20,000 bases of DNA, taken from assembly GCA_008632985.1 (NCBI GenBank), contig QPGO01000259.1, positions 57,413 through 77,412 of the forward strand, given 5' to 3'. The position numbers and the translations under genes were made by a program. Numbering within the stretch: the stretch's first letter is position 1; each line of letters begins with the position of its first letter. Below are positions 1-20,000 of this stretch, one piece after another. The notes beneath the pieces are model-generated. The model ran no database searches and had not been told where the DNA came from. It saw nothing but the letters and a program-made list of their open reading frames with translations. This DNA comes from Psammoneis japonica. Its lineage: Eukaryota.

Positions 1-797
1 ATGACGAAATGATTTTTTGTCGTACGCGTGGCTACCGTACAAACAGAAATCTACTCGATGACCAGAGGGTCACACTGGCAGATGATGCGAGGCAGCTGGA
101 GCCTGTCTGCTGCTGGTGCCATCACCCGCCTTTGAATTTCGGGACGTTTGTTTTGGTTGGAGCAGTGAGCAGTCTTTTGTGATTGATTTTCCTGCATTTG
201 GGCACTGGGCTTTCAGACTCAGGATGTTGCTGTTTTGTCTTTTGTTTTCATTTTTTGCGGCCGGCAGGGCTGTGGCTCATGACAAAAGCTGCGTCCTGCA
301 GCAAAGACTCAGCCTGCAGCAAGGGCGTGGAAGACTCCCACACCAAGGCACACACCCGCAGACATGTCATCCACAGATGCAAGGTCAACAAAAGACTGGG
401 TTGAAGCAAGGGCTCATTTCTTGCACAGGAGGCAAGAGTGCCACAAAAACAGGAGCAGCGAGTCTCCAGAGATTGAAGTGGTGGGTGGTGAGAGCCCTGG
501 TGCTCAAAGGAGCATCAAATGGAGGAAATGAGCTCTGCGTGCATTGTGATGCCAGAGCAAGTCAAAACAAGATGTGTGGCACAATGACAGATCTTGGCAG
601 CCAAGCACCATGTGGAACCTTGTGCTGCTGTGCTGCCTGTGACATGCATGTTTGCAATCATGTGATCCAATTGAAAACTTTTGACATCTGTTGTGTTTGC
701 TCACTTGCCAACATCTGAAGAGTGTGCTGGCACATGCAGATGTCACAAAAAAATGATTGTGGGGAGGCATGGCTGTGATTCAAAATGGGTCCTTGTG

Positions 798-885
798 ACA
801 GGTTCCAGCCCCGGGTGACGGGGTTCCATTTGACATTGGCCTGTGCAGCTCCATGTGCTGCCAGCTCTGCAGCACAAGAATTTGT
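798..885. mobile_element. Decayed terminus of the same TIR family (other end not identified)
   Basis: acaggttccagccccgggtg...tgacattggcc...agctctgcagcacaagaattt resembles 19891-19971. Preceded by cttgtg. Confidence 0.65.
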
Positions 886-2550: not shown

Positions 2551-2665
2551 CAGCCCTTTTGTTCCCAAGCTTGTTTTCCTCAATCAGCCTGTGGAAATGC
2601 ACAAGCATGATGCAGCCCCTTTGTTCCCAAGCTTGTTTTCCCCTCAATCAGCCAGTGGAAATGCA
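2551..2665 (+). repeat. Two-copy tandem duplication, about 62-bp period
   Basis: cagccc.tttgttcccaagcttgttttcc(cc)tcaatcagcc.gtggaaatgca at 2551-2601 and 2613-2665. Confidence 0.9.
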
Positions 2666-3255
2666 GTGTGATGTCAGAAGGACAGCTTGTTTGGGCTGAT
2701 TGTGAGCTGAGCAATGACAAGATTGACATCCTGTGTCACCAAAACAATGTGCAAAAATTTTGGGGAAGTGACCAAAAGACAATGACAAAAACCTTTCAAC
2801 ACATCATCAAGCCTGAGAATTTTGGGCAACAAAGAGCATGGGCTCAGTGCAAGAAGGAAGAAAGTCAGCACATTGCTTTTGTCAGCTTCTTTTGTTTGTG
2901 TCATGAGGAAGGATGGGTGGTTCTTTCAACAGCTGTTTTTTTTGTAAAAATGCAGCTCTCCCCCCCCCTCCAAAGCTGCTCACAGATTGTTGCTCATCGC
3001 AGCTGGGAAATGCGGTGCTGCTGGTTTTTCCACCCTGGCTGCATTGCACTCTCTCACACGATGACATGCTTTGTCACAGCAAAAATGTGCGCACACTTTG
3101 ACTCTTTTGTGCTGTGCAAGCTCAACATCTTTTTCTTTGGCCAGCAGCTTGAAAGCGCAAAAACACTGCAAAATGAAGTGCAGAGAGGGAAAAAAAAAGA
3201 ACACCCCCTTTGAGCAATCAGCAGAGAGAGCGGGGGGTGGCTGCTGGCACAGGGG

Positions 3256-3513
3256 GCCTGTTCCAGCTCCAGGTGCTCCGCGCGGGTTCGATTCCCATCA
3301 TTTGGAAATTTGTGCATTTGGCGCAATTGGCTTTTTCCAAATCCGTTTTTTGCCAAATCGAAGGGCAAGTGTGCACTTTACATGTGTTTTCGGGTGTACA
3401 CTCACCTTTCGATTTTCGAAACGATCAAAATTGAAGGAGCCAATTGCGCCAAACTGCACAGAAAATCGGCCTCTCGAGTGATGAAAAGCAGATCACCTGG
3501 AGCTGGAACAGGC
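3256..3513. mobile_element. MITE-like TIR element, 258 bp
   Basis: Perfect 20-bp TIR gcctgttccagctccaggtg / cacctggagctggaacaggc, flanked on both sides by cagggg (3250-3255 and 3514-3519). A second internal inverted pair: tgtgcatttggcgcaattggct / agccaattgcgccaaactgcaca. Confidence 0.88.
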
Positions 3514-5549
3514 CAGGGGGCTGCATTTCTCCTCCTCCCCAGTGCACCCCAGCCGCCCTCTCTGCACCCGCCCACTGCCACAAAGAGCCAAGGCACAATC
3601 ATCAGACAGCATGAAAGCCAAAGCTGAGTGGATTCCTGGGACTGGACAGCCCGGCGCGCCGTCCCAGTTGCCGCCAATGCGCCAGTCGTGCGAAATTTTA
3701 CAGCGATCATGATTGCGCAAGCATGGCATCAAGTGCGACTGCATCCCATGTCCTCACAGCTGCATCACAGATGCCATTTTGAGTCCTGGCCAAAAATTTT
3801 CCATTGAGTGGAACACACACATTTCTTTGAGCAATTGCGTTCTTGAACGGACAGGAAAAGGAAAGAAAATTTCATTCCAATCAAAATTGACACTGTTGGA
3901 CAAACACATTGGCAATGATGCACGTGGATTTGCCTGCTTGTCAACAAACTGCCCGCACATGCACTCAATGGCCAAGTGACGTTCTTTGATCATGCCATGC
4001 ATCAGAGATGAAACACCTGCACTCAGTTGTCCAACCTTCACATGAAGATCTGAGATGCAAACCGGGAGCAACCCGCCAGCACAAAAAACACGCCATGCTA
4101 CACTGCAACAACACCACATTGGGTGCCAAGCAATCCAAGACCGGCAAGCACGTGAAAGTTGACCCAACGGCAATCGGGCAGTCGTGTGTTGTGTGTTTTT
4201 GTTTGTGGGCGAGGCATTGTGCCAACAACAACAACAGCGAGATTGTTTCATCGTTGATCACTCCACCACAAAGAAGTGCCAATTATTTTCGTTGGTTGGC
4301 AGCAGCACATTTACGTGTGGAACCAGTTCTGCATGGTTTCCACACCGCAATTGTTCTGGGGAGAGTTGAAACATGACGAAAAGTGATTCTTGAATCTGAA
4401 GTGTTTTGAACAAAGCACAACAACCATGATGACAATGAAAACAACAACAACCATGATGCTCAAGTGTCTGCCATCTCTCTTGCTGTTGAACGCTTGCTTT
4501 GCATCTGCACAAGAAGCCCCTGCTCTTGGATGGTGTCTCAAATCCAAGCATTTTCTTGATGCCAGTGGCAGGAAGAACAACTGCTTTGGGCAGCCAGGGC
4601 AAGCTCAGCTTGTGTGGCTGCACCCAACAGGAGGGGTGGCAGTGCAACACATGAAAAAGGAGGCTGGGGCAGCTGATTGTCACATTGGCCAACAAACAAG
4701 AAAACAAAGTGTTGACACACAAAGAGCTGCTTGACAAACACCACCAAACTCAAGCCAGCCACCAAGGCAGCACACAACAACTGGAACAAAAGCACAAGAA
4801 GAACACTCCCCTTGACCTGTTCGGGGAGAGAAGTCACAAGTTTTCACAGGTTTCTGAGGACGCATGACGAATCTAATCAGAAAGGTCCCAAAACTGCGAT
4901 GCTTGAGTTTCAAAGAGCCACGCAAAATGAGAAACCCATGGAAACTTGCAACTTCTCTTCATGGGCAAGTCAAGGGGAGTGCAACCAAGCAGTTTGAACA
5001 CTCTGTCAGGTGAAATGTTCAAGTTTCCATCATCTGGGAGAGGGCTCAAGTTGGTGAGCCGACTTTGGCAATTTGTGTAGAAAACACACTGAGCTGTGCG
5101 TGCATGGAATCTGGCCCACTTTTGCACCCGCACCACCCCAAGGTGTGCGCACAATGAGCGCACAGCAGCGCAATGTCAGACAGAAGACAGTCTTGCATTT
5201 TTTGCAATTTGCGTGACAAATTGCCGTCGACGCCGATGATGATGACAATTTTCAGATGCTGACAGAGGACAACTTTGCAACAGGCACTTGATGCACTGAT
5301 CAACTGCACTGCGCAGAACACATGTGTGTGAAGAAAGTCCCCAGGGCAAACTCACAATCATTCGATGATCAAATGCGCAAAACGACGGTCAAAAAACAGA
5401 GCTCCTCATTGGTGTGACGTTTTGCGCTTTAATGGAGGTTGCTTGCAGGGACTTTCATGACTGAATGCATTCTCAAACACAACAAACTAAATGTCCACAA
5501 GGCGAGTCAGAATTGAAGCTGTGTCCCGCCTCAAGCTTCCGCATGCAAT

Positions 5550-5566
5550 GGGGGGGGGGGGGGGGG
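5550..5566 (+). repeat. Poly-G tract (17 nt)
   Basis: Directly visible homopolymer. Confidence 0.9.
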
Positions 5567-6402
5567 TCAAAATTGTCCATTTGTCACAGCACGTAGAATC
5601 TACATGGGTTCTGGCATTGACCTCATTGCAGGCACAGTCAGCCAACAACCCGACAATCACAGCGCACGCAGGGCCTGCGCAGGTCATGGTGTTGAACTTG
5701 CCATTGAGTCTTTTCAGCGCACAACCTGCGTGATCACGACTGCAACTTGTGGCAGCGTTTCCATTCTTGAACTGACTGTCGCAGTGGGATTTGCACCAGG
5801 TGCTGAGAAGCTGTGATTGGCAAGTGGGCTGTGATCCAAGAAGGAATCTGGAACCTTGAAGGGGGTGGGGTTTGGAGGCGGAACACACAACCAACTCAGA
5901 CTTGCCCAACAACAAAAGACTCTTGGACACGTCGCTGTCATCGCTGTCGTCACGACAATGCACCACCATCACATCGCCGATTGTTGGTGACAAGACGCGC
6001 AGTGTGCTGTGCGTTTCTCGTGCAGCAGAAAATCCTGAAAAATCAAATTGTCGTGCCTTTGCCCCTTCTTCTGCGATTGCCTTAAGAAGCTGTCAGCAGT
6101 GGCATGCACAAAAAAGCAATGAGCTGTTCCAAGACTGTGCTTGCCAGCGCACAAAGGATTCATCAGAGAACACTTTCTTGCACAAGCCAGTCGAAGACTG
6201 GGCTGAAAGAAGAGCAAAAGAGTGCGCCAAAAACAAAGGGCCAAGCAATCCAGCCATTTGTGAAAAAGCAAATGGCAGCATGTGTGACTTGCACACAAAG
6301 ATTTCAGATCTGATGTGGGCAACACTTTGGGAAAGAACTGCAAGTCCACAGCTCAAAACTTCAAGCTGGTTGTGGAAAGAGGTGCTGAGCCAATGCTTTG
6401 CA

Positions 6403-6422
6403 CCCCCCCCCCCCCCCCCCCC
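6403..6422 (+). repeat. Poly-C tract (20 nt) followed by A-runs
   Basis: Directly visible homopolymer. Confidence 0.9.
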
Positions 6423-6949
6423 AAAAAAAAGCTTAAAAAACAAACCTGAAGCTGCAAGCACCTGCAGCGCCAAACAAGGGTGGCACCACAGACAGCTGAG
6501 GCCAGCACAAAAAAGAAATGGAGCATGCAGACAGAGCTGAAAGACACTTGGCTCCTGTGAAAACTGCAGCCTTAGAGAGATGCTGATCTTTGCTGACTTT
6601 TCCATGACATGTTGGTCTTTCAGCATGCCTCCTGACCAACAATTGCTTTGTGGATGTCTGCACTGTCATTTTCTGCATCTTTGTTGTTTGGCTTTCTTGG
6701 AGTTAATTTTGGTGCCAGGAAGCCAACCAGAAAATTCTTGCCTGTGCAATGAGGAGGGCCGCCAGCGGAAGCTCATGACAGTCTGATCTTGGGGTGAGCA
6801 GACTCCTGGTGGGTGTCTTTGCTCCAAGAACTTTGTTGTTTGTCAGTTTTGCTTTGTTGTTTCTGGCGGTGATTTTGTTGTTTGCATCACCCAGGAGCAT
6901 AAAAAAAAAGGTTTTTTCTGTTGTTAAAAGGTTGGGTCATTTCCTGTTC

Positions 6950-7950
6950 AGCAAGCTCATGCAGTTGACAGTGCAGCACACTGTGTGTCGACTTGTCTCT
7001 GGTTGATCAATTGCGAGGGTTCCAATCACAATGGTGCCCAAAATCATCCAGAAGTGGCCCAAAGGCAAGTTCATGTCAGTGTCTTCTTTGCTGGTCTTGA
7101 CAAGACAAACCTCACGTGCCAAATTCAAAACACAACAGGAATCCAAGCAAAACCCAAGAGTTTGGTCTTGTCCACATCTTGGCTGAAACCAAGCAGAAAC
7201 ATCCCGCACACAAGCAGCGAGATGCCTGGCCACTTGGCGGATCCAAGCAGGTGCTTGTCAGCTTCTGCCGCTTGAGGCCCCACTTCTCACTGGCATTCTC
7301 TGTGTCTAGAAAGCACCAGATGCCTTTCAGTGCATTGCAAGCACCACAGATCAACATGACTGCATTGGCGCTGTCCAGGTTTTGAAGACAGGTGCACGCT
7401 GTGACAACTTGAGGTGCCAAGACCACGAGCACCTGGGCCACATTGGGGATTCCCAGTTTTTCTTCTTCATCATTCAGTCAGGATGCTGCGAACAACTTCT
7501 TCAATCACCAGGAACATCCCGCATCTGATGGCCATGTCAATGCTCTTGTCATGGACGAACATGAGGTGTGCAATGAAAGATGTCAAAAGGAAAAATGTCC
7601 ATTCCTTTCGGCAAACAAAGACACACTTGGGGGCAGGCTGCTTGAAGCCATGAGCCTCCATGGCCTTCTCTGTTCTGAGTGCACCAAGAACCTGAGCCGC
7701 TGGAAGGATTGTGCTGCTTGTCTTGGCCGCTGTGCTCGAATCAAGAGGTCCAGCCCCTCCACAATGGACAGAGAGTGCAGCAAAATGCGGAACAGTGGTG
7801 GCAGAGTCAAGAGGTCTGCCCCCTTTGTGAGGGAGTGCAACCAAACACAGAACAAAGGCCTTGTTTTGCATGAGGGTGCTCTTTTTGGCTGTGCACTCAA
7901 TTTGATGAGCACAGCAAGGCCGACAAGGACAGAAGAGAGTTTCATGGTTG
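6950..7950 (-). pseudogene. Possible decayed membrane-protein gene, family not identified
   Basis: Protein-like hydrophobic segments in minus frames (MKLSSVLVGLAVLIKL; LNDEEEKLGIPNVAQVLVVLAPQVVTA...NAVMLICGACNALKGIWCFLDTENASEKWGL), broken by stops and frameshifts. Confidence 0.3.
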
Positions 7951-8082
7951 GTTCTTTGCAGTTGAAAGTGCAAATGGGGATGATGACACAGTTTGCATCC
8001 CAAAAGATTTTTTGAAGAAATTTGTGGAGTGCGGCAGGTTCAAAGGTGTGCGCAAGAGCACAAGGTTGTGAGTCACATGGTG

Positions 8083-8225
8083 TGTCCACTGCAGTGACAT
8101 TCACAAGCTGGACCAGGACCAAACCAATCTGGCAGGAGTGGAGAGGGCTTTGCTGGTGCAGGCTTGCACTCTCCCAAGAAAATTCAGGCTGGACGGCAAG
8201 GGCCAGAGGGCGGGAAAGGTGGGAG
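8083..8225 (-). repeat. Split direct repeat B2 (3' end of the element)
   Basis: Direct copy of 8383-8556. Confidence 0.9.
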
Positions 8226-8229
8226 TGTC

Positions 8230-8365
8230 AAAAGCTGTCTGCTTTGACCCGCTGTTGTTGTCTCAAAAGAACAAGCAAGCTTCATTGGATGGGCAGCTCA
8301 TGCATTGCTGTGCATTCAATGGAGCCAGGAATCTTGCTTGGCACGTTGCTTGAGGCCAGCAGCTG
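8230..8365 (-). repeat. Split direct repeat A2
   Basis: Direct copy of 12489-12627, located between B1 and B2. Confidence 0.9.
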
Positions 8366-8382
8366 TTGCCACTTTTCTTGTT

Positions 8383-8556
8383 TGTCCACTGCAGCAATGT
8401 TTTCACAAGCTGGTGGACTGGGGCCAAACCAATCCAGGAGTGGAGAGTGTTTCACTGGCACAGGCTTGCACTCTCCCAAGAAAACCCAGGCTGGACGGCA
8501 AGGGCCTCCAGCTCCTCCAAAGGAGGTGCAAGTGAATTTGGGTGGGAGAGGTGGGA
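8383..8556 (-). repeat. Split direct repeat B1
   Basis: tgtccactgcag...ttcacaagctgg...ccaaaccaatc...caggagtggagag...caggcttgcactctcccaagaaaa..caggctggacggcaagggcc...ggg.ggga.aggtggga matches 8083-8225, with about 30 extra bp at 8507-8539. Confidence 0.9.
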
Positions 8557-8619
8557 CTGGCTGGCAGGCTGTGGCGCTCAAGGCATGTTGGGGGCAATGG
8601 GGACATCGTTGTTGGGGTG

Positions 8620-9480
8620 TGGAGTGCAAAGTTCCCACCAGCTGGCATGTGTTGTGCATGGCAGCATTTCATCAGAGTGCCAGCAGCCTGAGAGACAGAT
8701 GATGTCAGTGTCCACTTGGGCACACAGCAACCCCATGGCACCGGCGGCAAGAAGGCAGAGCACGCGGAGACATCAGATGGGTTGAAACCAAGGTTCTGGG
8801 GGCCAAGGGCAGTGACGGCAGTGTGGAGGATGGACATGATGTCAGCTCGGCTGACACGGTGCCATGCTCTGTCATGAAAGCATGTGGAGAGGGGGGTGTC
8901 TGTCAGCATGCTGTGGGTGCACAAATGCAACACTCGACATGTTGCTGCTTTAACTGGGCAAAGCTGGGGGTGGCCAGAGAGGCCCAGACCAATGACTTCA
9001 CCATCACACCATTCTTTTGGTTGGTGAATGTGAGGGTGGTGAATGTGGCAGCCACGAGCTGTGCGGTGGGCACCTGGAATAGATCAAGACACACACTGCC
9101 AGCGGAGAGATGCACGCTGGTGAGCTGGAAAGGGGTGGTGTCAGAAGGTGTGGCGGTGTGTTTGTCAGGGCGCAAAAGGAAGAAAAAGGCTGGAGCAATT
9201 GTGTCAGCGATCACCTGGGTGCCCGGGTGTTGGCTGAGGGCAGTGGTGGAGAGGATCCAATGCAAGTCGGCAACCAGCACAGGCTTGACGACTCTGTCTG
9301 GTGGAGGATCTTGCTTCTTGTGGCAATGGATTTGGTGGTTGAGCGGAAATCCAAACCCCCTTGTGGTGTGAGGTGCAGGTCCAGGGACCCCATTGCAGCA
9401 AACATTTGGCCAATGGACCACAGGGCATCTTCAGCAGTGTGTCCATGGATGGGATGGGGCCATGTGGTGCAAGGATGCTG
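8620..9480 (-). pseudogene. Tyrosine recombinase remnant of the Ngaro-like element
   Basis: EDALWSIGQMFAAMG...LDFR, KQDPPPDRVVKPV, AFFFLLRPDKHT (LLRPGEYT), LTFTNQKNGV, DVSACS/LAAGAMGLL (SARSLRAxGAMALL), DIICLSGCWHSDEML (IIRLxGRWRSDEMLRY). Frameshifted. Confidence 0.88.
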
Positions 9481-9639
9481 ATGTGGCATCAGTGGAGGCA
9501 GACTTGGAGGCAGAGGATGGGATCATCAATTTCAAGAAGGAGTGAATTGATGGCCACAGTGTGGCAGAAGTTGGTCTGTTTTTCCCAGTGGGTGTTGGTG
9601 GCGGAGGTGCGTGTGAAGTGGTGACTGTAAGGGTGACAG

Positions 9640-11575
9640 CTTGTTGCACAGCATGGAGGTCACAAAGGAGTGCAGTTTGGGTGGCAGGATCCACAAGCAC
9701 CGAGGTTTGTTCTGGGGACAACAAGAGTTAAAGTGGTGCAAAAATTTGGTGTCAGTGAGGGATTGCAACAAGCACAAGGCATCATCAGCGGCAGACGCAT
9801 TCCAGCTCCAGGTGGGACCTCGCACTGCTGAACTGTGACATCAACAGTTTTTGGATCATGTCGCATGTTGTGCACATGCATTTCCACATGTGACATTCTA
9901 CGAAATTGTTTCATGCTCCCTGTTTTGCGAAGCCAAAGGCTTTCCATTTTCGACATTTGTGAGAATGAAAATGCACTGGGCATGTTCTTCAATCATGTCT
10001 GAAGAATGCACCCGGGCAAACTGTCAATGATGTGCTCCAAGTGTGAAGGAGGAGATGCGTTCACAAAATTGCCTCTTTTTCTGTTGGTGATCATGTGCAT
10101 TTTCATTGCAGCACAAATTCACTGCAGAGCTTGCACGCAGAATTCTACGGGCCCAATGTCACACAGAGTCCGCCCAGGACTGGAACCCGTCGGCAGTGTT
10201 GACCGGGCATGGCAGGTGGTCATGCAGTGTGAGGTGACAATGGAAACGTTGGTGGCAGGCTTGGTGATGAAGAAGGGGCGCACGGATTCTTGCGGCAGTT
10301 GAGGATCCTTTGCATTGCCAGAACATGGTGCCTGAGCAGTCGGTGCATTGGAGGTGTGTGCATTCCCACATGTCGAAGCAGTTGGATGCTGCACATGTTT
10401 GCACTGTGCTTCCTGCAAGCTCCAGATTGGTGTTGGTCGTGGTTCCGGCGGGGTTGTCACAGGTGGCGAGGTCAGATGTGATGGCTTTGGGGAAGGGCAT
10501 TTGCCATGCTGTCAGACCTGATGAGGTTTGACAGTGGGCACATGCAGAAGGGCCAAACTTGAGTTTAGTTGCCCGTGGCACGGTGACTGCATTGGTTGGC
10601 AGCAGCACTCCTCCTCCTGTGCCATGCCCGGTGGCATCATGGCATCCATGTGCCATGGGTTTGAGCGGGACCAGTTCTTGGATGCAAACTGGACGAAGTT
10701 CGAGGGTGGCGCAGAGGTCTCTGAAGTTGTCCACAATTGCGTGGAAGGTGGGTGTGAGATGTGCGCGGGAGTCAGGTCTGTGTGGTGTGGTGCAGCAGTT
10801 CCTGGAGTTCAGAAAACAGGCCACGCAATCCAGGGATTGCTGTTGACAGTGAGCACAGCTCACCAAGTGGGTGGTGGCAGTCGGAAGTGGTGGTGTGATT
10901 GTGCTGGCAGGGGAAGTCCTGATGCAGTGCAGCACAGAGTTGTGCAAGGCAACAGTTGGTGAGGTGCAGTGTCATGGCATGGGTGTCGATCAGCCAACCC
11001 AGCACCTCTTTTTGTGTTGACCAGGTTGCATTGCCTTTGCACAATTTCTTTGCTGAGATGGGCTCTTGATGTTGTTCAGTGTCATTGGCATTGAGCGGTT
11101 GAAAGATTTTGTTGATGGCTGTCATGATTGTTCACAGAACATTGAGTTGGGAGTGCTGTGGCCCTTGTGCAGCACCGATGCAGTTGTCTGCATGTGTGTC
11201 AACATGCCACAGATGTTCGCGGCATTTGTGATGCAGGTGTGGGTCCGTTGTGGTTGGCAGTGGCACAGCTGAGGCTGGATCTCTGGGCAGCATTGTGCAC
11301 AAGGGCAGGTGATGGCCGCCAGCTGTGCCTGTTCCAGGTGGCGCAGCGGTGCAGCAGGAGTTGGTTGGCCAGGTCGGCACCAGTCTTGGTTGCAACACAA
11401 AATGCTTGTGGTGAGTTCTTCCAGCCCATGGGAAGTGTGGCTGGGATTGCCGCTGGGGGTGGTTTGCTTGGGATCAATGGGGGTGCCACAACCAATGTCG
11501 GTGCTTGGTCTGACATGATGGAGAGACAACAAAAACCATCAGACATGTTGATCTTCATCAAATGCACATGTCCTC
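9640..11575 (-). pseudogene. Reverse transcriptase-RNase H remnant of the Ngaro-like element (interrupted at 9795-10190)
   Basis: HLMKINMSDGFCCL (YLxKxDxSDGFYR), LPMGWKNSPQAFC, HVDTHADNCIG (YVDD mutated to HADN at 11183-11194), EPISAKKLCKGNATWSTQKEVLGWLIDT, LGELCSLSTAIPGLRGLFS, GCHDATGHGTGGG (DASG motif), TNTNLELAG, PVNT/AADDALCL. Confidence 0.9.
9795..10190. mobile_element. MITE-like TIR element, 396 bp, nested in the RNase H region
   Basis: Imperfect TIR acgcattccagctccaggtgggac / gtccgcccaggactggaacccgt, flanked by cggcag at 9789-9794 and 10191-10196. Removing it with one copy of the duplication restores the in-frame PVNTAADDA. Confidence 0.88.
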
Positions 11576-11839
11576 CAACAGTGGATGGCACTGGCTGACT
11601 TGATTGGCTGCAGTGGCTGCTCTGTGAATTCCCACAAAAGCTGGCTTGGGCGCCAATGACATTTGCGGCAATGGGTTCACACAGGCAAAGGGTGCATGCA
11701 TGGACGTGCGGGCATGTGGACTTTGACCGCCTTGGGAGTCTGTGCTGCAATTTCCAGATGTGGCCCTTCTGGCATGGTGGTGATTGCCGCCAACATGGCA
11801 TTGTTGGTCAATGTGTGCATGCCGTTTGGTGCCAAATTC

Positions 11840-12476
11840 ATCAACGCATTTGGGAACTTAGCAATTTGGCATTGGTTGCAAGCCAGGTCCCCCAATGATC
11901 CCACAAGTGAGACCAACCCATGGTTGTGGTTGTCGCACTGCTGTGCAGTGGGGCAGGTTGAAATGTGGTGGGACACTTGAATGTGCCCTGCATGGTTGGC
12001 GGGTCCTGGCACTTGGCAGTGCATGAGGACAGGCAGGGGTGCATCATGCTCAGAGGCCGCTGCAAGCCTGTCAAACAATGCCCCCGGATTGTGTCAGGAC
12101 TGGCCATTTTGAAGTCGGCAGTTGTGTGGAAATCAGTGCAGGTGCATGGGACGCGTGGTGGCTGGAGGTGTCCTGGAGGCTGTGCTTGTCCAGCGGTGCC
12201 TGCCTGAGGCGGTGGCACCGGTTGACCTTGTGGTTGAGCAGCTGCTCCTTGTTGTGCTGCTGGCAGCCCTTGCGGGGCCTGTTGCAGTGGTGCTTGTGGT
12301 TGTGGTGCCTGTTGTGCCAGCGGCACTGGGTGTGCAGGTTGCAGGTGGTGGGGGCGCGACGCCTTGTGCCAGCGGCTGGCTGTGCCCCTTGTTGGGGCAG
12401 TTGGTTTGCCCCTTGGTTCAACATGTTGTGTGTCATTCTCACACAAGTGGACAACAGTGGCGGAGGTGTCTTGCAT
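11840..12476 (-). pseudogene. Probable gag-like ORF1 remnant (Pro/Gln/Ala-rich)
   Basis: Lies between repeat A1 and the RT. Low-complexity PQA tract followed by a Cys/His-containing segment (HPCLSSCTAKC). Assigned mainly by position. Confidence 0.4.
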
Positions 12477-12488
12477 TGAACCAATGGC

Positions 12489-12627
12489 AAAAAGCTGTCT
12501 GCTTCGACTTGCTGTTGTTGTGTCTCAAAAGAACAAGTGAGCTTCATTGGACAGGCAGCTCCCGCGCAACTGTGCATTCAATGGAATTGGGATCTCACTT
12601 GGTGCATTGCTCAAGGCCAGTCACTGC
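12489..12627 (-). repeat. Split direct repeat A1 (5' end of the element)
   Basis: aaaagctgtctgcttcgacttgctgttgttg...tctcaaaagaacaag..agcttcattgga..ggcagctc...ctgtgcattcaatgga...aggccag matches 8230-8365 in the same orientation. Confidence 0.9.
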
Positions 12628-13221
12628 AAATGAGGCATGTGTCCAGTCACACAGGCCTGGTGGCTCCGAGTTTGTGAAAACAAAAAGAGAGGAAAAGAAG
12701 GAGGAGAGGAGAAAACGCCATGTGTTCAACTCGCACGTACGACGGCCATGCATTTTTGCAACATTGATGCTGCTGCAACAAGAACAAACCAACCATGACA
12801 CAGCAACAACCGATGTTTGATCTTGCCACCAAACCTCATCCTGCCAAAAATGTGGGTGCATGACATCCACATTTTGCTGTGACAAGTGTGTCAATAGCAA
12901 GAGACGTGAGAGAGAGAGCCAAAAAATGGACAACAAAAAAGCTCCTTCCTGCAGCTGTGCTGCTGCCCAGACTCCAGATTTTCACAACTTTCACAGCAAC
13001 AGCCAATGTTCTGTTTTCTCTGCCAAACCTTTCCTGCCAAAACTGCCAATGAGCAGCGTGCTGTGCTGTTTCTCTTTGGCAAGTGCGCCAGTGAAAAGAG
13101 AGGCACCGCAAGGGGGAAACCCAAACAGGCCAGGCAAACACAAAGGCCCTTTGCACGGCTTTGCCACAATGCTCAGGCTCTCAGCTCTCACAGCTTGTGC
13201 AGGTGTCAGGTTCTTCTGTCG

Positions 13222-13773
13222 ACGTGTTCCAGTCCCAGGTGACGCACAAAACGACAATCGGATTTTGAACATAATTTGTGCATGTTTTAGTGCATGTGGC
13301 ATTTTAACAAAAATGCTTAGGCCGGATTGACTTTCACAGGCTTGTAGAGTGTGAACATTTAAATAGTTTTTTGAGGGGTGTTCAAATCCTCATGGGAAAT
13401 GTATCACAAACTTCCTCAGTGGACTCTGTGCTGATTGTACGTCAGTAGATTTACACTGAAATTTTTTTGTAGGTAGAAAACCTGCCAAGCAGCATCGTAG
13501 AAAGATGTGTTTAGGCAACATCCAAGGTGACGGCAATATTTTCGCCGAAAATCATCCGTTGTGTTACGAATCTTTTAACGCAATGGAAAACATAGATGGC
13601 ACAATGACAATGACATTGCAACACTCACACGAGTCTTGTTAGTGTTGCAAAACATCCACATTTGTATAAATCTATGCTTTTGGTGGTGAAAGTTCGATCG
13701 TAAGTTAGGGACCGCGCAAAAATCGCGCAAATGTTTTTGTGCACGATTTGGTTCACGTGCGGCTGGAACACGT
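13222..13773. mobile_element. MITE-like TIR element, 552 bp, interior largely retains TpA
   Basis: TIR acgtgttccagtcccaggtga / tcacgtgcggctggaacacgt, flanks ctgtcg (13216-13221) and ctgtca (13774-13779). Confidence 0.82.
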
Positions 13774-13830
13774 CTGTCACACTGTGCCTGCAGCAAGCAG
13801 CAGTGCCAAGGCTGCTTGGCAGCCCAGCAG

Positions 13831-14150
13831 CCAGCTCTTTGTGAAAACATGGTTGCAAAAGGAAAGGATCCACCTGTTGCAACACAAGAGACAAGCAATC
13901 AAGAGTGCATTTTCCTGTGGTTTGGTGTCAAAGGAAATGTGCTTGTTTGTGGTGCTGTGCTGGCAAGACCAGCTGTGGGGTGCACTGCCCAGCCAGCCAC
14001 TGCCACAGCGGGGCCCCCCTCTCATGATGTTGGCATTCTTGGGCCAGATCATGCAGCTGTGTCACTGCAGTCAAATGGCATTTCTGCCAGCTCTGCATGA
14101 AAAAATGATTGCAAAAGGAAAGGAGCCATCTGCAGTGCAAGAGACAAACA
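13831..14150 (+). repeat. Diverged direct repeat (about 65-bp cores, 256 bp apart)
   Basis: ccagctctttgtgaaaacatggttgcaaaaggaaaggatccacctg...caagagacaagca (13831-13897) vs ccagctctgcatgaaaaaatgattgcaaaaggaaaggagccatctg...caagagacaaaca (14087-14150). Confidence 0.8.
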
Positions 14151-15122
14151 GCCAAGCTTCCTGTGGTGGTGGGCTGCTTGAAGCGCTGCAGCAGCTGTGC
14201 TCTGTGCTGGCCATCCAACAGAGATGAAAGGACCACGGTGTTGGCTGCAAGATGAAAGGACTTTGTTGGTTCCAACTGGCACCAAACAAGTGCAGGAAAT
14301 TTCCCTTTCATCCAAAGAAATTTGGGGCTTTGAGAGGAGCCATCATGAGCCAAAACCCCGCTCATGCTCACATCTTGATTTCCCCCTCATTGGCTTGTTG
14401 AACAAAGGAAACAAAGAGTCTTTCCTCTTTTGTTTTGTTGCACAATGTGTGCCAGATTTGCCACACCAACTTGAGCTTTTGTGGGCTTGCTTGGAGCAGA
14501 TTGCACTTGAAGAGACCATGGAAGCACATCTTTTGTCCTTGACAAAGTGCCCCCCCAATGGTGTCTGCCTCACTCATTGAGTGATGCACTCAATGAGAGG
14601 TGTTTTGGCAGCCACAGGCTCTGGACAAATCAACTTCTAGATGAAAGGATTGTGACAGTTGCAACTGCGCATTGAGCTGCCAATTAAATTTTCTTTTCTA
14701 ATTTCCTTGTCTTTCCTTGTCTGGGGAAACTCAGCACCAAATGAGGAATCCCCTGTGATCAAAAACCCCAAAGCTGATGCAGTGACAGGCATGTTGACAA
14801 TGACTCCATCTGTGGCATTGCCATCAAATTTGTGCTGGAAAACCATGCATGTTGTTTCTGCTTGTTGCTGTCAAAATGGAATTGTGTCTTGTCAAATTCT
14901 GCACAAACCCTGGCACATTTCCTGCACAGCCCACAAAGAGCCACCTGCACAGCTGGATGATTGCCTTGCTTCAGCCCAACAAGCAATGTGAAGCATGCTT
15001 TTGTGTTTTTTGGGATGTTTTTGGCAAAGGGGAATGTCCGAAATGCCTCCACTCTCCCAAGATTTGCTGCCAGCACTCCTTGAGTTGAGCGAGTTCCTTT
15101 TCCAATGACTGACAGCAGCACA

Positions 15123-16299
15123 ATGAGCATGTCACAATTGCCGTCACTTCCTCAGATTGTTCATGCAGAGGGAGCTCCAATTCATTTGTGCCCGGAAGAA
15201 ACAGAACCTCAGGCCTTGGCACAGGTGAGGCTCTTGGCAGAGCCCTCTTCACGCTGACTGATTGCGTGGCAGTCATGCCTGCATTTGTCCCAACGCCATT
15301 GGGGCAGATGTGTTGGGCACGGAATGGAGGCTGTGGATGTTCATGGGCTTTACAAGGAACACACTTTGACCACCTTTTTGCAACATCAAACAAAGCTTGA
15401 TGGAACACAAGAGGTGTTGGATGAGATTGCATCTGTGGTGGAGCCAACACATTGTCCAAAAGAACAGCTGATGATGCTGCCTCGTGTGATGGATCAGCTG
15501 GGCACACCAGGAGGGAATCACTTTTTGAAAGCAGTTTGTGAAGCAGAGAATGAGCAAGTTTGGGTCATGCCACATTCTGGAAGTCACAGTGTTGGAAATT
15601 GAGTTGCTCAACGCTGTGATGAGGTGGCAAAGAACATGTTGCAGCAACAAGGTGTTGATGCAAAACATTTGAATGGAATCAACCACATGTCAGTTCAATT
15701 GCAAAAAGGAGGAGATCATTTGAGAGACACACAGTGGTGTCAACAACATGCATTTCATGGTTGAAAGGCCATGAAAAGCATCATGCTCAACATTGTGGGG
15801 AAGGTGACAGGACGTGAAGCTGACATGTCTCAGGCAGTCAATGTCCACCACAGTTGCCGCCAATGTGAAGATTGTGGTGGCGGGTGCAAGTTGTGTGTGA
15901 CTCACAAAGGAGCAACCTTGGCATGAGATGGAGAGATGGGTGCAATTCCAGGTGGCAGCATGGGTGTTGGTTCCTGCATTGTGTGAGAAAAAGGAAACAT
16001 TGAAAGCTGGAGCTTGTCATCACATGGTGCAGGAAGAAGACTTTCTAGAACAAAGGCACACGGCGACATCTCACAAGAAGAGTTTGAAGCACCCATGTGT
16101 GGAATCACATGTGATGCTCATCCAAGTGTCAAGGATGAATCGCCTCAAGCCTGCAAGGATCTCACTGAAGTCATGCAACAATGCGAGTCTTTGACAGGCA
16201 TTGTTCATCGGGCTGCTTCCTTTCATCAATGTCAAGGGCTTCGAAAAGAAGCTTCCAAAGAAGTGTGGCAGACCGGCTGGCAAAAAGAATGAGAAATAG
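15123..16299 (+). pseudogene. rtcB: Bacterial-type RtcB RNA 2',3'-cyclic phosphate/5'-OH ligase pseudogene
   Basis: Motifs readable across frameshifts: EPQALAQVRLLAE, CVAVMP, CPNAIGADV-GHGM (PxAVGVDIGCGM), QLGTPGGNHFL (QLGTLGGGNHF), VWVMPHSGSHSVGN (MLHSGSRxVGN), VTHKGA (VTRKGA), GEMGAIPGGSMGVGSCIV, SSHGAGRRLSRTKA, KDESPQACKDL (DExPxAYKD), LLPFINVKG, ending in TAG at 16297-16299. It has in-frame TGA stops, several frameshifts and appears to lack the D-x-H-x-G-x-G segment after VMP. The start is approximate. Confidence 0.9.
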
Positions 16300-16583
16300 A
16301 AACAAAGTGGCAATGTGCAGTTACAAATCTGCTGCTTTCTCAAAGTGACAAACGAGACGTTTGAACTTGGATGATGCTCTTCAAAGCAATTGCTCTGCTC
16401 CTGCGTCCAAGCTTGTACTGAGCTGCTTGCAGCAACGAACGCGGCCAAGGACGGTATGGAGGTGTGCGGTGTGCTTTGGGAAAATGTCAGAGCGAGAAGC
16501 ATGAGTGTACCATGCATGATAAACATGTAACCCATGCTAAAAATCTCAATGGGTAGATTTCCATGAGACTAATAGATCTATAG

Positions 16584-18455
16584 CTATTTACTCAGAGCAA
16601 GCTTTCGGGTCATCTTCAATCTTTCAAGCTCGCAATTTCGACATGAGCACTTTCTTGAACCCTCGATTTCTCCCTTTTCATGATCTTTCTGCTGGCATTG
16701 CAAGAGTTTGGTCACTGCTGCTTCAATCCAAAATGGCGCAGCTGCAAGCCAGAAGCGAGCCCAAACAGCTCCACCCCAAGGGTTCCATGTCAGCACAACG
16801 TTCATTAACAGAGTCAGCGGGCCAAGTATCACAAAGAGCAGAAGGTCGATTGAGTTTTGGCAGTCTTCATTGGCCAAAGCGTGCTCGGGAACGACGAACC
16901 ACAAATTTGTCGCTGTATCAATGCAAGTCGTCCATTCGACAACGGACAAGGCAGAGAAGACCGCCAATGAAACCATGTTGGCAATGATCTGAACGTCAAT
17001 TACAGTGAGGTTGCCATCTGATGTCTGGACAAACTTGGATGACACTAGAAGCAATGATGAGAAAGCGACGTAGGCTGTGACAACCACAGAAGCCTTCGTT
17101 GCCACCTGATCAGCCCCGAAAAAGAGAGTTACCGTCGTGATCAGCGTCAGAATCATAAGAGGCAGTTGGAAGCGTATTTGATAAAAGCGTGGATTGCGAA
17201 ACCCCATAACATCAATTTGGGGATTGGTTCCGAACAAAAAGTGTTTTGATCTGTGAGTCAGCACGAACTCGAATCCATTATGCCGTATAATAGGAGGGCA
17301 ATATAAAGGGTCCTTCCACGTCAAATCTAGATCTCGCTCGTGAGAGTTTACAACGAATGCAATGTTATCCTGAATGAAATCGAAAGGAAAGTAGATGATT
17401 GCATCACTGGGTAGAGAGCGAGTAAGTTCTCCAATCATATTCTTGCGAGCCCCTGCTCCAAAGCCAGCAACGCGGACAAAGCCGTCACCGGGCTGGGTTT
17501 GGTCATCGGGCGACACCACCTTTCTTGGTAGAGGAAGGTTTTCGATTTCGACGTAGCCTTCGGGCCGGCGGACAAAGCCTATTTTCTCCCATGTTCGATC
17601 ATCCGCTGACTCCCAACAGTCACTAGGCTTGCAACGATGCTCCAGTATGAATTGGGTTCCAAGAGAGATGCCGTCAGCAGCTTCGGCAGGACTAACTGTG
17701 CTCTGTGTCTTTCTCCATCGAACCTCCAGGATTGATGATACACGTAATGAGTAGACGTCATCCCATGAAAGCGCCGTGGTTCGTGCAAGTCGTATCCCTC
17801 CCTCTTGCCAGTCGCCAACATCCAAGCCGGGTGACCATACAATATCTTCGGTGACAGGGTGCCTCGACTTGGCAGGAAAGGTGTCAGCTCTATGGTTTGG
17901 CAGTTTCATCAGTCGCTTGTCCTCCCAGTGCAGTGTGACCCCGACCAGGAGCTTGAGGCTGTGGCCCGCTATAAGGTATTCCAGATCCAGGTACTCAACT
18001 TCAATCTGAAGGTGGTGCGTGGTGGGATTGCGCGTCGAAAGTGGTCCACCGGATGAACTTCCTCTTGACGCTTTGGCAGCGGTCAAGTTCCGAAGTGCAT
18101 GCTCATACTCTGTTGCAAAGACCGTGGTCAAAGAAAGCGGCGAGCACAATGCCAGTCGACGCGACAAGGTTCTTTCCACGACGTCGTCTTGGGTTGCCAG
18201 GCACAGCACAAACTCGTCACCCCCTGCTCTCAGTACTTCGAGAATGCCCAGGTCTTCAGATTCCTTGAGCATCAACAGGAACTCTACCAGTTCTTCAAGA
18301 AAACTCGTCGCCGCAGAGTAGCCAAACATTGAGTTGTAGGATCGAAAGTAATTGACATCCAGCAGCGCAAAGCAACGCGTTGCTTCAGGAAACTTATTGG
18401 CCTTGAATTCATTCTCAATGAGCGAGCAACGAGGCAGTCTACTTAGCTTCGACAT
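16584..18455 (-). CDS. GGDEF-domain / pentameric ligand-gated ion channel (Cys-less Pro-loop receptor) fusion protein, about 623 aa
   Basis: Only long ORF with normal TA/CG content and Tyr usage. The track start at 18512 is TTG; the first ATG is at 18455 and the stop is TAG at 16584-16586. N-terminus: LSRLP...ALLDVNYFRSYNSMFGYSAATSFL...LRAGGDEFVLCL...AAKASRG (GGDEF fold; GGDEF motif at 18210-18224). Then pLGIC hallmarks: LHWEDKRL, IVWSPGL, YFPFDFIQ (Pro-loop, FPFD at 17379-17390), pre-M1 RNPRFY, four hydrophobic helices, LTVID before M3 and ID...P...N in M4. Confidence 0.88.
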   Translation of the reverse strand: MSKLSRLPRCSLIENEFKANKFPEATRCFALLDVNYFRSYNSMFGYSAATSFLEELVEFLLMLKESEDLGILEVLRAGGDEFVLCLATQDDVVERTLSRRLALCSPLSLTTVFATEYEHALRNLTAAKASRGSSSGGPLSTRNPTTHHLQIEVEYLDLEYLIAGHSLKLLVGVTLHWEDKRLMKLPNHRADTFPAKSRHPVTEDIVWSPGLDVGDWQEGGIRLARTTALSWDDVYSLRVSSILEVRWRKTQSTVSPAEAADGISLGTQFILEHRCKPSDCWESADDRTWEKIGFVRRPEGYVEIENLPLPRKVVSPDDQTQPGDGFVRVAGFGAGARKNMIGELTRSLPSDAIIYFPFDFIQDNIAFVVNSHERDLDLTWKDPLYCPPIIRHNGFEFVLTHRSKHFLFGTNPQIDVMGFRNPRFYQIRFQLPLMILTLITTVTLFFGADQVATKASVVVTAYVAFSSLLLVSSKFVQTSDGNLTVIDVQIIANMVSLAVFSALSVVEWTTCIDTATNLWFVVPEHALANEDCQNSIDLLLFVILGPLTLLMNVVLTWNPWGGAVWARFWLAAAPFWIEAAVTKLLQCQQKDHEKGEIEGSRKCSCRNCELERLKMTRKLALSK

Positions 18456-19890
18456 CTTAAACGGTGTGATACAAGATATTCGTTTCACCTGGTTTGTTTC
18501 AGCATTCCACAAGGAAAACAGAAAATTGAAAGTATTTCAATAGAGTTTGATGAGAGAGCACAGCGATAAGCACTTTCAGCTTATACTTGCTACTGTCCGT
18601 TTGGCGATAGCTGCAGACTTTTTTTTTACCGCTCGTCAAAAAAGTTCGCATAAGATCGTTTCTAGGACAAAATTTCACGCTGAATCGAATGGGCCACCTC
18701 GCACCTTCTGAAAATTGAGTCTTGAGTGTCTTTTGAACCGAACAATTTTTGGTGGGCGTTTTAAAGTAATTTTTTTCGCCAAAAATGCTTGGGCAAATGT
18801 TTGATTTCTTTGGGGGCAAAATGACGGTCTTCGCAAAAATTTTTGCTTGGGGAGATTTTTCCATCCGACGATGACAATGGACTGGCAACGCCATCTCCTC
18901 CTTAACCACAAAAGCCTTTGAGTCTTGTGCAGCAACTTCGTCGGCGCATGCAAGACACTGTGGTGCATGTGCCGACGAAGTTTCAATGTCCAACTGCAGA
19001 CAGTTAGAAACCAGATGGTGTTGCCGTTTTCAGCTCTGCAGCTGTCGCCAAACGGACAGTGCCGGGAGACCACAGGAAAACAGCACAGGCTCAGATGTTC
19101 AACTGCAGTGGGCGACATGGGCTCAAGTTCAAGAAATGGGCTGGCATGTCGTCTCAATGGAAAAATGATTGACGCCCACATCTTGGGATGATTTTGTGTG
19201 TGCCGATTTGCAGACCTTTTGGCGAGTGTTCGGCCCGTCATCTGTCCATCAGATTGTGGATTTTCGTGACCCTTCGTGCCTTTTTCACCATGACACAGCA
19301 CGGCAAAATGGCGTCATCACACCATCATGATTTTGAGCACAATGGAAGGTGGGGCATCGGTCGCCGACGATTGCACTGGTCCCTTTCGATGCTCCAAAGG
19401 CTCGAACATGTCATCGGCGACCGATGCCCCACCCTCCATTGTCATGAAAATGCCGTCTCATTTTCACCATGGCCAACCTCACCAACAGTTGACAGGGTGC
19501 ACGTGTTTCCACGTGATTCAGCACTCATCATTTGAACTTCCATTTTCTCACACCGCAAAAACATCGTCAACCGTCATCGTCGTTCGTGCAGCCATGGCAA
19601 CTGGGAAAAAGAGAGCGTGGCTGTCCTGTTAAAAAGAGAGTTGATGATGCTCTCATTCTTTTGACAGCACACATCTTGGTGAGCTCTGATGGGAAATGCC
19701 TGATGGCCAAATGCAGGAGACATTCATCGTGTGCTCCAGAGTGGCGACATTCGAGGCGGAACAACCAAAAGTGAGACATTGGGTGCAATTTAGAAGGGAT
19801 CCATTGAGTCTGTTGATGCTTGCATTGCAAAACATGCCATGAATGCATGTGACAAGGTGGGCGCCATTGATGATGAGAAAGCTCCTTTTG

Positions 19891-20000
19891 ACGCGTTCCA
19901 GCCCTAGGTGGGACTCCTTGTGACATTGGGCCCGTAGAATTCTACGTGCGAGCTCCGTAGTACGAGAATTTAATTAATGGACATGTTTATCTTCACATCA
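19891..20000. mobile_element. Left end of a little-mutated copy of the same TIR family (runs off the window)
   Basis: acgcgttccagccctaggtgggactccttgtgacattgggcccgtagaattctacgtgcgagctccgtagt aligns with the reverse complement of about 10115-10190. Preceded by cttttg. Confidence 0.8.

Follow-up and report, generated by a model that had tools for sequence, protein, structure and literature searches.

The 20,000-nucleotide stretch analysed here (the window) belongs to contig QPGO01000259.1 of assembly GCA_008632985.1, deposited under Psammoneis japonica, and carries on its minus strand a gene for a protein of 623 residues in which a GGDEF domain, the palm domain of diguanylate cyclases, precedes the body of a pentameric ligand-gated ion channel (pLGIC). 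Judged from profile comparisons and from relatives that share the arrangement, this GGDEF-pLGIC fusion is real and conserved. The product would be a signalling protein of the membrane, from a small family that probably belongs to protists, in which a short flexible linker attaches the GGDEF cyclase to the top of a pLGIC body of the Cys-less type. In the interpretation that we prefer, and to which we give about an even chance, the pLGIC body of a pentamer would be the sensor and the GGDEF domain the output, with both termini in the cytosol and with a product altered by a Thr at the position that normally specifies guanine.

The occurrence of both parts in one uninterrupted open reading frame (ORF) had been proposed in an initial annotation of the window and is confirmed here, since the frame runs for 623 codons and both homologies are supported by profile methods. 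The placement of the GGDEF domain at about 18455-18060 in that annotation agrees with residues 1-132, and its remark that no GGDEF-pLGIC fusion had been described still holds: full-text literature searches for the combination returned no description of one. Its wider interpretation is partly supported. Two points go beyond it, namely the topology, which probably faces the cytosol, and the exchange of the guanine-specifying Asp for Thr, which is seen in the family alignment. Of the two parent families, both well known, the pLGICs count among the most thoroughly studied receptors; the fusion itself is undescribed.

The fused gene and its relatives

In the ORF listing of the window, the minus-strand open frame spans 16584..18512 and counts 642 codons from a TTG. 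The first ATG of this frame, at 18455, gives 623 residues followed by a TAG stop (16584-16586). The longest stop-to-stop frame of the window has 650 codons, to be compared with a median of 254, a 95th percentile of 336 and a maximum of 434 codons in 200 first-order Markov simulations of the window, so that the minus-strand frame exceeds chance length even in DNA that is poor in TAA and TAG. The features of the gene are as follows, each with the evidence on which it was placed.

16584..18455, minus strand: complete coding sequence, 623 codons plus TAG, uninterrupted (ORF listing and length control)
18060..18455, minus strand: compact GGDEF (diguanylate-cyclase-type palm) domain, residues 1-132 (Pfam, PDB profile matches, alignment with bacterial domains)
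18306..18308, minus strand: Thr50 at the guanine-specifying Asp position (alignments with PDB chains and within the family)
18210..18224, minus strand: GGDEF active-site motif, residues 78-82 (invariant in the six family sequences that cover it)
18015..18059, minus strand: Gly/Ser-rich linker with conserved GP..RN, residues 133-147, leading from the cyclase domain into the first beta strand of the channel body (family alignment)
17199..18014, minus strand: beta-sandwich of the pLGIC ligand-binding type, residues 148-419 (hhalign, PDB profile, weak Neur_chan_LBD match)
17451..17759, minus strand: family-specific insertion of about 100 residues (233-335) within the beta-sandwich (gap opposite the hhalign template)
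17379..17390, minus strand: FPFD "Pro-loop", residues 356-359, without flanking cysteines (aligned to YFPFDYQNC of nAChR alpha-3)
16788..17198, minus strand: pre-M1 Arg420, M1 (with Pro432), M2, M3 and M4, residues 420-556 (hydropathy, hhalign, PDB alignments, weak TIGR00860 match)
16587..16787, minus strand: C-terminal tail of 67 residues, net basic (12 Lys and Arg against 7 Asp and Glu)
16632-16649, minus strand: CxCxxC motif in the tail, residues 603-608 (motif scan)
16297..18767, no strand: island of ordinary dinucleotide composition around the gene, bounded by the first and last clustered TpA

The motifs quoted in the initial annotation are present in the translation. The GGDEF domain contains DVNYFRSYNSMFG (residues 33-45), RAGGDEF (76-82) and AAKASR (126-131), and the channel body contains WEDKRL (177-182), WSP (207-209) and RNPRFY (420-425). 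For the motif given as FPFD.Q, the FPFD is there and the spacing of the Gln has to be corrected, as the next residues are FIQ and the loop spells FPFDFIQ, that is, FPFD..Q.

An exhaustive phmmer search of 1.84 billion cluster representatives returned 20 proteins at E<=1e-3, ten of which are generic bacterial GGDEF proteins near the threshold. Four relatives are full-length and contain both parts: P0002, with 54% identity, P0003, P0005 and P0006. P0004 begins in the middle of the GGDEF domain and is without its N-terminal half, and P0007, P0008, P0009 and P0011 are fragments. P0010 (1934 residues, matched in 26 stretches) was rejected as a relative, as its perfect tandem repeats sum weak scores. 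The clusters of the relatives at 90% identity hold 1-12 members, on contigs of 0.7-30.9 kb, and where the source names them at all, it does so only as "GGDEF domain-containing protein". Because the Pfam channel models miss the family and the sources name the GGDEF part only, the family is invisible to domain-architecture databases. A word-indexed profile search with the channel part recovered only three known relatives and missed P0004 and P0005, and a metagenome scan with an alignment of three sequences yielded 78 loci, all of them generic bacterial GGDEF proteins matching within residues 1-137. Three of six members (P0003, P0004 and P0006), the window's protein not being one of them, carry a zinc-knuckle-like CxxCxxxH...C insert in the last part of the beta-sandwich; in P0003, the segment around this insert is duplicated.

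GGDEF domains are overwhelmingly bacterial, and the composition of the island around the gene differs sharply from that of its flanks. Both facts would suit an assembly chimera or a bacterial contamination that joined the channel gene of a eukaryote to a GGDEF gene from a bacterium. The probability of such an artefact is nevertheless close to negligible, given that an identical junction and a conserved linker are found in the four independent full-length relatives, which come from different sources, and that the composition is uniform across the junction. In addition, the 80 loci kept from a search of prokaryotes (one genome each for 185,579 species) match residues 1-142 only, at 29-41% identity. 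The initial annotation had suggested looking for the same architecture in other organisms; four full-length examples were found, none of them in these prokaryote genomes.

Cyclase domain and channel body

GGDEF (PF00990) is the sole Pfam family found in the window's protein, with 23.9 bits against a gathering cut-off of 23.8, over residues 27-91 and profile positions 33-93 of 161. The initial annotation had named PF00990, PF02931 and PF02932 as the profiles to compare, and only the first was reached. When the sequences of a family alignment (A2) were scanned singly, PF00990 matched five of eight, with a best E of 1.3e-7, and NCBIfam TIGR00254 matched five of five family members at 21.1-27.5 bits (E 2e-4 to 2e-6). 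In the PDB, the best matches of the family profile are solved diguanylate cyclases (E 2.3e-7), and the matches of its GGDEF part include 8qj3/8qpf, the ammonium receptor Sd-Amt1. Alignment with ten bacterial GGDEF proteins taken from the phmmer search indicates a domain that is complete yet about 25-30 residues shorter than the canonical one; it owes its compactness to two deletions after the GGDEF hairpin, of roughly 23 and 16 alignment columns.

The metal-binding Asp of strand 1 (D33) and the base-contacting Asn (N41) are kept in all five family sequences compared, and the GGDEF motif is kept in all six that cover it. Position 128 is basic in three of seven sequences and position 131 in six of seven. 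An RxxD I-site is lacking within the 12 residues upstream of GGDEF in each of six members. By these residues, the domain is a minimal but catalytically equipped cyclase. Its identity to the window's protein is 32-56% among the four members that have it whole, compared with 27-64% for the sandwich and transmembrane parts; the GGDEF part is thus conserved like the channel parts, which argues that it is not a decaying appendage.

The residue that specifies guanine is Asp in all ten bacterial comparators and Thr in all five family sequences that could be compared, so that the mark of canonical GTP-specific diguanylate cyclases is missing from the family; around this position, canonical enzymes have GH..GD and the family has GY..AT. 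In the HMMER alignments, the family Thr pairs with the Asp of canonical chains and, in chain 6d9m, with a Ser (GHLVGS); this chain is a response-receiver diguanylate cyclase fused to lysozyme. The part of the literature on Hypr GGDEF enzymes that bears on this position reports that a Ser there lets adenine be accepted besides guanine, that Ser combined with GGEEF is inactive, and that natural GGDEF domains with Ser or Thr at this place carry GGDE[F/Y] exclusively (eLife 2019, PMC6456294; structure code 5VS9). The family shows the same combination, with Thr at position 50 in five of five sequences and a strict GGDEF in six of six. The Thr variant therefore suggests a relaxed purine specificity, and the product may not be c-di-GMP alone.

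The channel body is harder to recognise. Neither of the Pfam Neur_chan models (PF02931 and PF02932) matches the window's protein even at E<=10, and Neur_chan_LBD matches weakly in two of eight family sequences (best E 0.0048). A channel-only profile, built from an alignment of seven sequences (A3) and compared with all PDB sequences, returned 89 sequences at E<=10. Among the best 60 of these 89, 59 are pLGIC subunits (GABA-A, nicotinic, glycine and GLIC chimeras), and the single other one is a cytokine-receptor-like factor; only four matches have E<0.01, the best being 3.9e-4. The alignments are collinear over strands 1-2 (W.D.RL and W.P), the pre-M1 R.P.FY and M1-M3, with M1-M3 aligned to GABA-A delta and nAChR alpha-3. 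FFPFDYIED stands opposite YFPFDYQNC of nAChR alpha-3, and profile stretches 3-66 fall in the beta-sandwich region.

For a comparison between profiles, 401 genomes of one bacterial class were searched with PF02931; 14 genomes matched above the cut-off, and ten ORFs of 300-460 residues were kept to represent bacterial pLGICs of the GLIC/ELIC type (loci L159-L170), the other four being dropped for length. Against these ten Pfam-confirmed proteins, hhalign with default settings gave a probability of 97.4-97.5% and an E of 8.5e-12 over 92-93 columns, and a control with reversed templates gave 0.7% and an E of 0.082. The pLGIC homology claimed in the initial annotation is thus upheld by this method. 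At low mact, the alignment extends over 295-300 collinear columns (query 1 to 426-431, template 64 to 366-371 of 372), by which it covers the predicted beta-sandwich entirely together with all four predicted helices; the middle of this long alignment is unreliable, and the FPFD loops pair only in a second, low-scoring alternative.

Features of residues 146-623 in the ESM Atlas point in the same direction. Scores reach 0.94-0.93, with 200-201 of 256 features in common, and the clusters found, part of which carry Neur_chan_LBD or Neur_chan_memb, are all eukaryotic (rotifers, diatoms, green algae and haptophytes); the ten best named matches have one clan in common. With the whole protein, the score is only 0.81, to stand-alone GGDEF clusters, which is a lead only. 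TIGR00860 ("LIC") matches two of five members weakly, with E 0.0014 and 0.0022.

By hydropathy, the window's protein has hydrophobic segments at residues 427-445, 455-473, 488-506 and 538-556, consistent with the four transmembrane helices of the initial annotation, and six of six members have four such segments. W177, D179, R181, W207, P209, P357, D359, R420, P432 and D487 are invariant in the six or seven sequences that cover them. The insertion at 233-335, with 32-48% identity within the family, has no counterpart in the bacterial pLGICs. A flanking Cys pair around FPFD is absent from six of six members, which have 0 or 1 Cys within 20 residues of it; the window's protein has none within that distance. 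The lack of a Cys-loop disulfide, also part of the initial annotation, is thereby extended to the family and assigns it to the Cys-less "Pro-loop" type. On these alignments, the channel body is a very divergent pLGIC of that type.

In M2, the polar residues at 2' (Ser) and 6' (Thr or Ser) and the hydrophobic residue at 9' (Leu, Val or Ile) are kept in seven of seven sequences, which makes a working pore plausible. Lys or Arg occupies 0' in six of seven, and the acidic residue at -1' is absent. The predicted pore is plausibly functional, and its selectivity, as far as the M2 residues tell, is probably not of the classical cation type.

Orientation in the membrane and proposed mechanism

To our knowledge, the beta-sandwich lies on the non-cytosolic side in every characterised pLGIC. 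In a classical pLGIC, the exported N-terminus would place the GGDEF domain outside the cell, away from nucleoside triphosphates (NTPs). The family does not have the N-terminus of such a protein. In a scan over 15 residues, hydropathy within the first 60 residues peaks at -0.51 to 0.81 in the five members whose N-terminus is complete and at 1.73-2.74 in the ten bacterial pLGICs; in other words, hydropathy predicts no signal peptide or hydrophobic leader in five of five members, against ten of ten bacterial proteins that have one. The frame in the window is closed by a stop 19 codons upstream of the ATG. An N-terminal domain of 420 residues without a signal sequence is expected to remain cytosolic.

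The charges of the C-terminal half are in line with this. The M3-M4 loop, which in classical receptors is the large cytoplasmic one, has 18-34 residues with 0-2 Lys and Arg and 3-6 Asp and Glu in the five members whose segments are called cleanly (in P0005, the hydropathy scan splits the segments differently); in the window's protein, it has 31 residues and is acidic. The tail that follows M4 is 67-123 residues long across the family and holds 12-23 Lys and Arg against 5-16 Asp and Glu, and the chain ends at M4 in seven of the nine bacterial comparators for which this was computed. With a cytosolic N-terminus and four helices, the tail would be cytosolic too, in agreement with the positive-inside rule. 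The absence of a signal peptide and the basic C-terminal tail together point to an inverted arrangement with a cytosol-facing beta-sandwich and cyclase, and we consider this N-in/C-in orientation of the family probable. The CxCxxC motif found in the tail of four of six members would, like the CxxCxxxH of the beta-sandwich, suit the reducing cytosol.

The opposite view, in which the N-terminal part is exported in the classical way and the GGDEF domain is an extracellular or luminal cap with a structural or non-enzymatic ligand-binding role, appears quite improbable. It has the precedent of all characterised pLGICs and of the hydrophobic leader in the ten of ten bacterial relatives examined, and the gene models of the relatives could have missed an upstream exon coding for a signal peptide. 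Against it stand five independent members whose N-termini are all non-hydrophobic and of similar length, and the upstream stop in the window. The long basic tail and the acidic M3-M4 loop also speak against export, and fully conserved catalytic residues would be pointless without NTPs.

In the preferred interpretation, the protein would assemble as a pentamer, as its relatives do. In contrast to classical pLGICs, the cytosol with its NTPs would be the side on which a crown of GGDEF domains, the ring of beta-sandwiches and the basic, Cys-rich tail all lie. The conformation of the body would be set by the membrane or by a ligand or ion that binds the beta-sandwich from the cytosol, and it would bring adjacent GGDEF domains into the two-fold pairing required for cyclisation or take them out of it. 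The Gly/Ser-rich linker of about 15 residues would let neighbouring GGDEF domains pair, and the mismatch between five-fold and two-fold symmetry could be resolved by a symmetry break of the kind proposed for Sd-Amt1, a trimeric Amt-GGDEF receptor. A mixed or adenine-containing cyclic dinucleotide is a possible product. GGDEF was chosen as the output because it retains its active site in full and has no I-site; in characterised proteins, too, GGDEF is the output domain, and Sd-Amt1 offers a solved precedent for a channel-fold oligomer of odd symmetry that drives a GGDEF domain active as a dimer.

The main rival reverses the direction of signalling and is, in our estimate, rather unlikely. In it, the GGDEF domain would be a cytosolic module that binds NTPs or cyclic dinucleotides and gates the pore, with catalysis absent or secondary. 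A domain placed N-terminal to the beta-sandwich, as the accessory domain is in bacterial pLGICs such as DeCLIC, agrees with such a nucleotide-gated channel, as do the shortened GGDEF domain and the pore-lining polar positions and hydrophobic 9' conserved in all seven sequences. Known receptors based on GGDEF domains, however, rely on the RxxD I-site, and the GGDEF motif itself is often lost in them. The family presents the opposite picture, with the I-site absent from six of six members and the active-site set intact in five of five or six of six sequences, which would imply substrate binding at the catalytic site, at least.

Several observations weigh against the body as sensor and the cyclase as output. 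GGDEF output domains are usually C-terminal to the sensor, and the N-terminal extras on bacterial pLGICs modulate the channel; the N-terminal order thus favours the rival direction of signalling. On the side of the cyclase, the window's protein passes the Pfam GGDEF cut-off by 0.1 bit only, all five members stay under the TIGR00254 cut-off of 37.4 bits, the domain has lost two segments relative to the ten bacterial GGDEF proteins, and the phosphate-binding Lys/Arg pair is loosely kept, with Ser at 128 in three of seven sequences. Chain 6d9m, on which part of the comparison with Hypr enzymes depends, is presumably such an enzyme, an identification taken unconfirmed from the chain name; the Hypr paper gives 5VS9. 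On the side of the channel, neither Neur_chan model reaches its threshold in any of the eight family sequences scanned. The topology is derived from hydropathy and charge counts, and the M1-M2 and M2-M3 loops are too poor in charges to inform it.

A more far-reaching version of the preferred interpretation would be an inside-out pLGIC whose cytosolic ring carries five Hypr-like synthases and couples ion flux to the making or sensing of a messenger of the cGAMP or c-di-AMP type in a protist; we regard it as doubtful. The likeness to CBASS drawn in the initial annotation finds no support: none of five members matches any of 5027 PADLOC models (E<=0.01), and the synthase is a GGDEF domain, not a CD-NTase.

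If the interpretation is correct, a branch of pLGICs that face the cytosol and bear an enzyme would widen the known range of the fold, and it would provide a natural system in which to study how allostery with five-fold symmetry can drive an enzyme that works in two-fold pairs. Signalling through GGDEF domains is found almost entirely in bacteria, and a conserved family of membrane GGDEF proteins with an intact set of active-site residues, probably from marine protists, would show that cyclic-dinucleotide signalling in eukaryotes reaches further than Dictyostelium. With the Thr variant, which messenger is made becomes a testable question. Should the inside-out reading be true, the family would represent a new topology class of pLGICs and a second, independent system of cyclic-dinucleotide signalling in eukaryotes.

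Surrounding DNA and comparison with known systems

The window contains one intact gene in 20 kb. Apart from this gene and a relic next to it, 132 stop-to-stop ORFs, chosen from 166 other frames of at least 70 residues by leaving out the shortest, gave no match to Pfam at E<=1e-3, and the 26 ORFs of at least 150 residues gave one sub-threshold chance match only. tRNA genes, Rfam families and tandem repeats were not found in the window. A dinoflagellate motif, used to look for a spliced-leader relic, had 0 matches in the window at up to 3 mismatches, so that the idea of a dinoflagellate is unsupported.

Most of the window is depleted of the dinucleotide TpA, with observed/expected ratios of 0.03-0.07 in seven of ten 2-kb bins; in these bins, CpG stands at 0.16-0.51, TpG at 1.60-1.91 and CpA at 1.61-2.33. 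The TpA-poor DNA comprises positions 1-16296 and 18768-19790 of the window, and islands of ordinary composition lie at 13272-13706, 16297-18767 and 19791-20000. The second of these islands consists of the gene with 287 bp downstream and 312 bp upstream. Its TpA ratio is 0.44 in the coding sequence, 0.54 in the 3' flank and 0.47 in the 5' flank, and its edges are sharp, with 0.02 and 0.05 just outside. The TpAs of the gene are of synonymous type (22 xTA codons and 17 TpAs across codon boundaries), and their retention indicates that the gene was simply spared by mutation. On a strand, the stops TAA and TAG number about 30-47 and TGA about 420-456, and the scarcity of the first two explains the many long spurious ORFs in the window.

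Adjoining the gene island is a relic of RtcB, a tRNA-splicing ligase, at 14808-16292 on the plus strand. It is intronless and lies in one frame with 8 in-frame TGA, as three collinear Pfam pieces, and its identity to eight RtcB proteins, over 360-426 residues, is 49-63%. The idea that the pieces are exons of a spliced gene was rejected, as all are in one frame broken by TGA only. Where the homologues have Tyr, the relic has Cys in 7-8 cases, His in 3-4 and Tyr in 0-1, and its stops stand opposite Arg in 3-4 of 5-6 cases. As read from these comparisons, the changes are exactly TAY to TGY or CAY and CGA to TGA, an inactivation by substitutions without indels. The nearest relatives of the relic include a protein with an MMETSP source. 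The single intact gene, the ORFs silent in Pfam, the eukaryotic Atlas clusters and this RtcB relative make a eukaryotic origin of the gene likely, probably in a protist.

Two inverted repeats, each with one TpA-normal and one TpA-free arm, bear on the order of events. The 26-nt repeat 18592-18617 / 19035-19060 spans the island edge, and its sole mismatch is TA inside against CA outside, which indicates that the island was in place before the flanks mutated. In the 51-nt repeat 10121-10171 / 19911-19961, the differences are mainly TA to TG or CA and CG to TG or CA. The pattern suggests that the flanks were mutated in place while an island of the size of a transcription unit was spared. The reported part of a recent study describes a process that changes TpA to TpG or CpA on integrated viral DNA of the chlorarachniophyte Bigelowiella natans (April 2026, bioRxiv 10.64898/2026.01.13.699255); the window has the same signature and differs from that DNA in being more extreme and in showing CpG decay.

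This signature raises the question whether the gene is the cargo of an integrated giant-virus-like or other foreign element, of which it would be the single member still kept active. The proposal is compatible with any of the mechanisms above, and we think it unlikely. It is favoured by an intronless gene amid DNA with the viral signature, by a neighbour that is itself an intronless hypermutated relic, and by the 132 ORFs without a Pfam match. However, of 385 candidate stretches from IMG/VR viral contigs, none encodes a relative, and the MMETSP protein among the nearest RtcB relatives suggests a protist type. The TA/CA mismatch of the 26-nt repeat, which places the island there before the mutation of the flank, also counts against it.

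Two further features of the window were observed. The island 13272-13706, with about 25 TpA in 435 bp and no Pfam or Rfam match, is flanked by a 22-nt inverted repeat (13221-13242 / 13753-13774, 86% complementary) and could be a late-inserted small transposon or another protected element. About 825 bp apart, 17 consecutive G and 17 consecutive C form the inverted repeat 5550-5572 / 6397-6419.

Among known systems, the bacterial pLGIC DeCLIC is said to have an N-terminal accessory domain, and accessory domains of this type reportedly bind ligands or Ca2+ in the periplasm. The window's protein resembles such channels in having its extra domain N-terminal to the beta-sandwich, at the predicted apex of the pentamer; the literature searches for the GGDEF-pLGIC combination gave no report of a nucleotide cyclase among the N-terminal accessory domains of bacterial pLGICs. 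Dictyostelium DgcA is reportedly the characterised eukaryotic diguanylate cyclase, a soluble, stand-alone enzyme whose c-di-GMP serves as a secreted morphogen. It shares with the window's protein a GGDEF domain in a eukaryote and differs from it in having no membrane or channel part.

Cys-less "Pro-loop" pLGICs occur in protists and prokaryotes, according to the relevant part of a survey (Jaiteh, Taly and Henin 2016, PMC4795631). The family agrees with them in the beta-sandwich followed by four transmembrane helices, the W.D.RL and W.P motifs, the FPFD loop with an invariant Pro and no Cys pair, the pre-M1 Arg, the Pro of M1, and an M2 with polar 2' and 6' and hydrophobic 9'. Unlike them, it has no signal peptide, carries an insertion of about 100 residues in the beta-sandwich and an N-terminal GGDEF domain, ends in a basic tail of 67-123 residues with CxCxxC in four of six members, and is too divergent for the Pfam Neur_chan models. 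In PMC4795631, "GGDEF", "cyclase" and "signal peptide" have 0 occurrences.

On the side of the enzymatic half are the Hypr GGDEF enzymes GacA and Bd0367, which make 3',3'-cGAMP, as stated in the pertinent part of PMC6456294. The family has in common with them a hydroxyl residue in place of the guanine-specifying Asp and a strict GGDEF rather than GGEEF, which fits the "Goldilocks" rule of that article as far as its account goes. The family carries Thr in place of their Ser, lacks an I-site and has a shortened domain, whereas the Hypr enzymes are described there as soluble bacterial response-regulator fusions with an I-site.

A parallel to the predicted architecture is Sd-Amt1, a bacterial ammonium receptor that combines the trimeric Amt channel fold with a HAMP and a GGDEF domain, and for which the authors, in the part of their article concerned, propose a symmetry break whereby two of the three GGDEF domains pair at a time (Sci Adv 2024, PMC11152129). 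By the same account, Sd-Amt1 differs from the window's protein in being bacterial, in bearing its GGDEF domain at the C-terminus through HAMP and a linker helix, and in being an Amt trimer, not a pLGIC pentamer. What the two would share, by prediction for the window's protein, is an oligomer of a channel family with odd symmetry, fused in the cytosol to a GGDEF domain that is active as a dimer.

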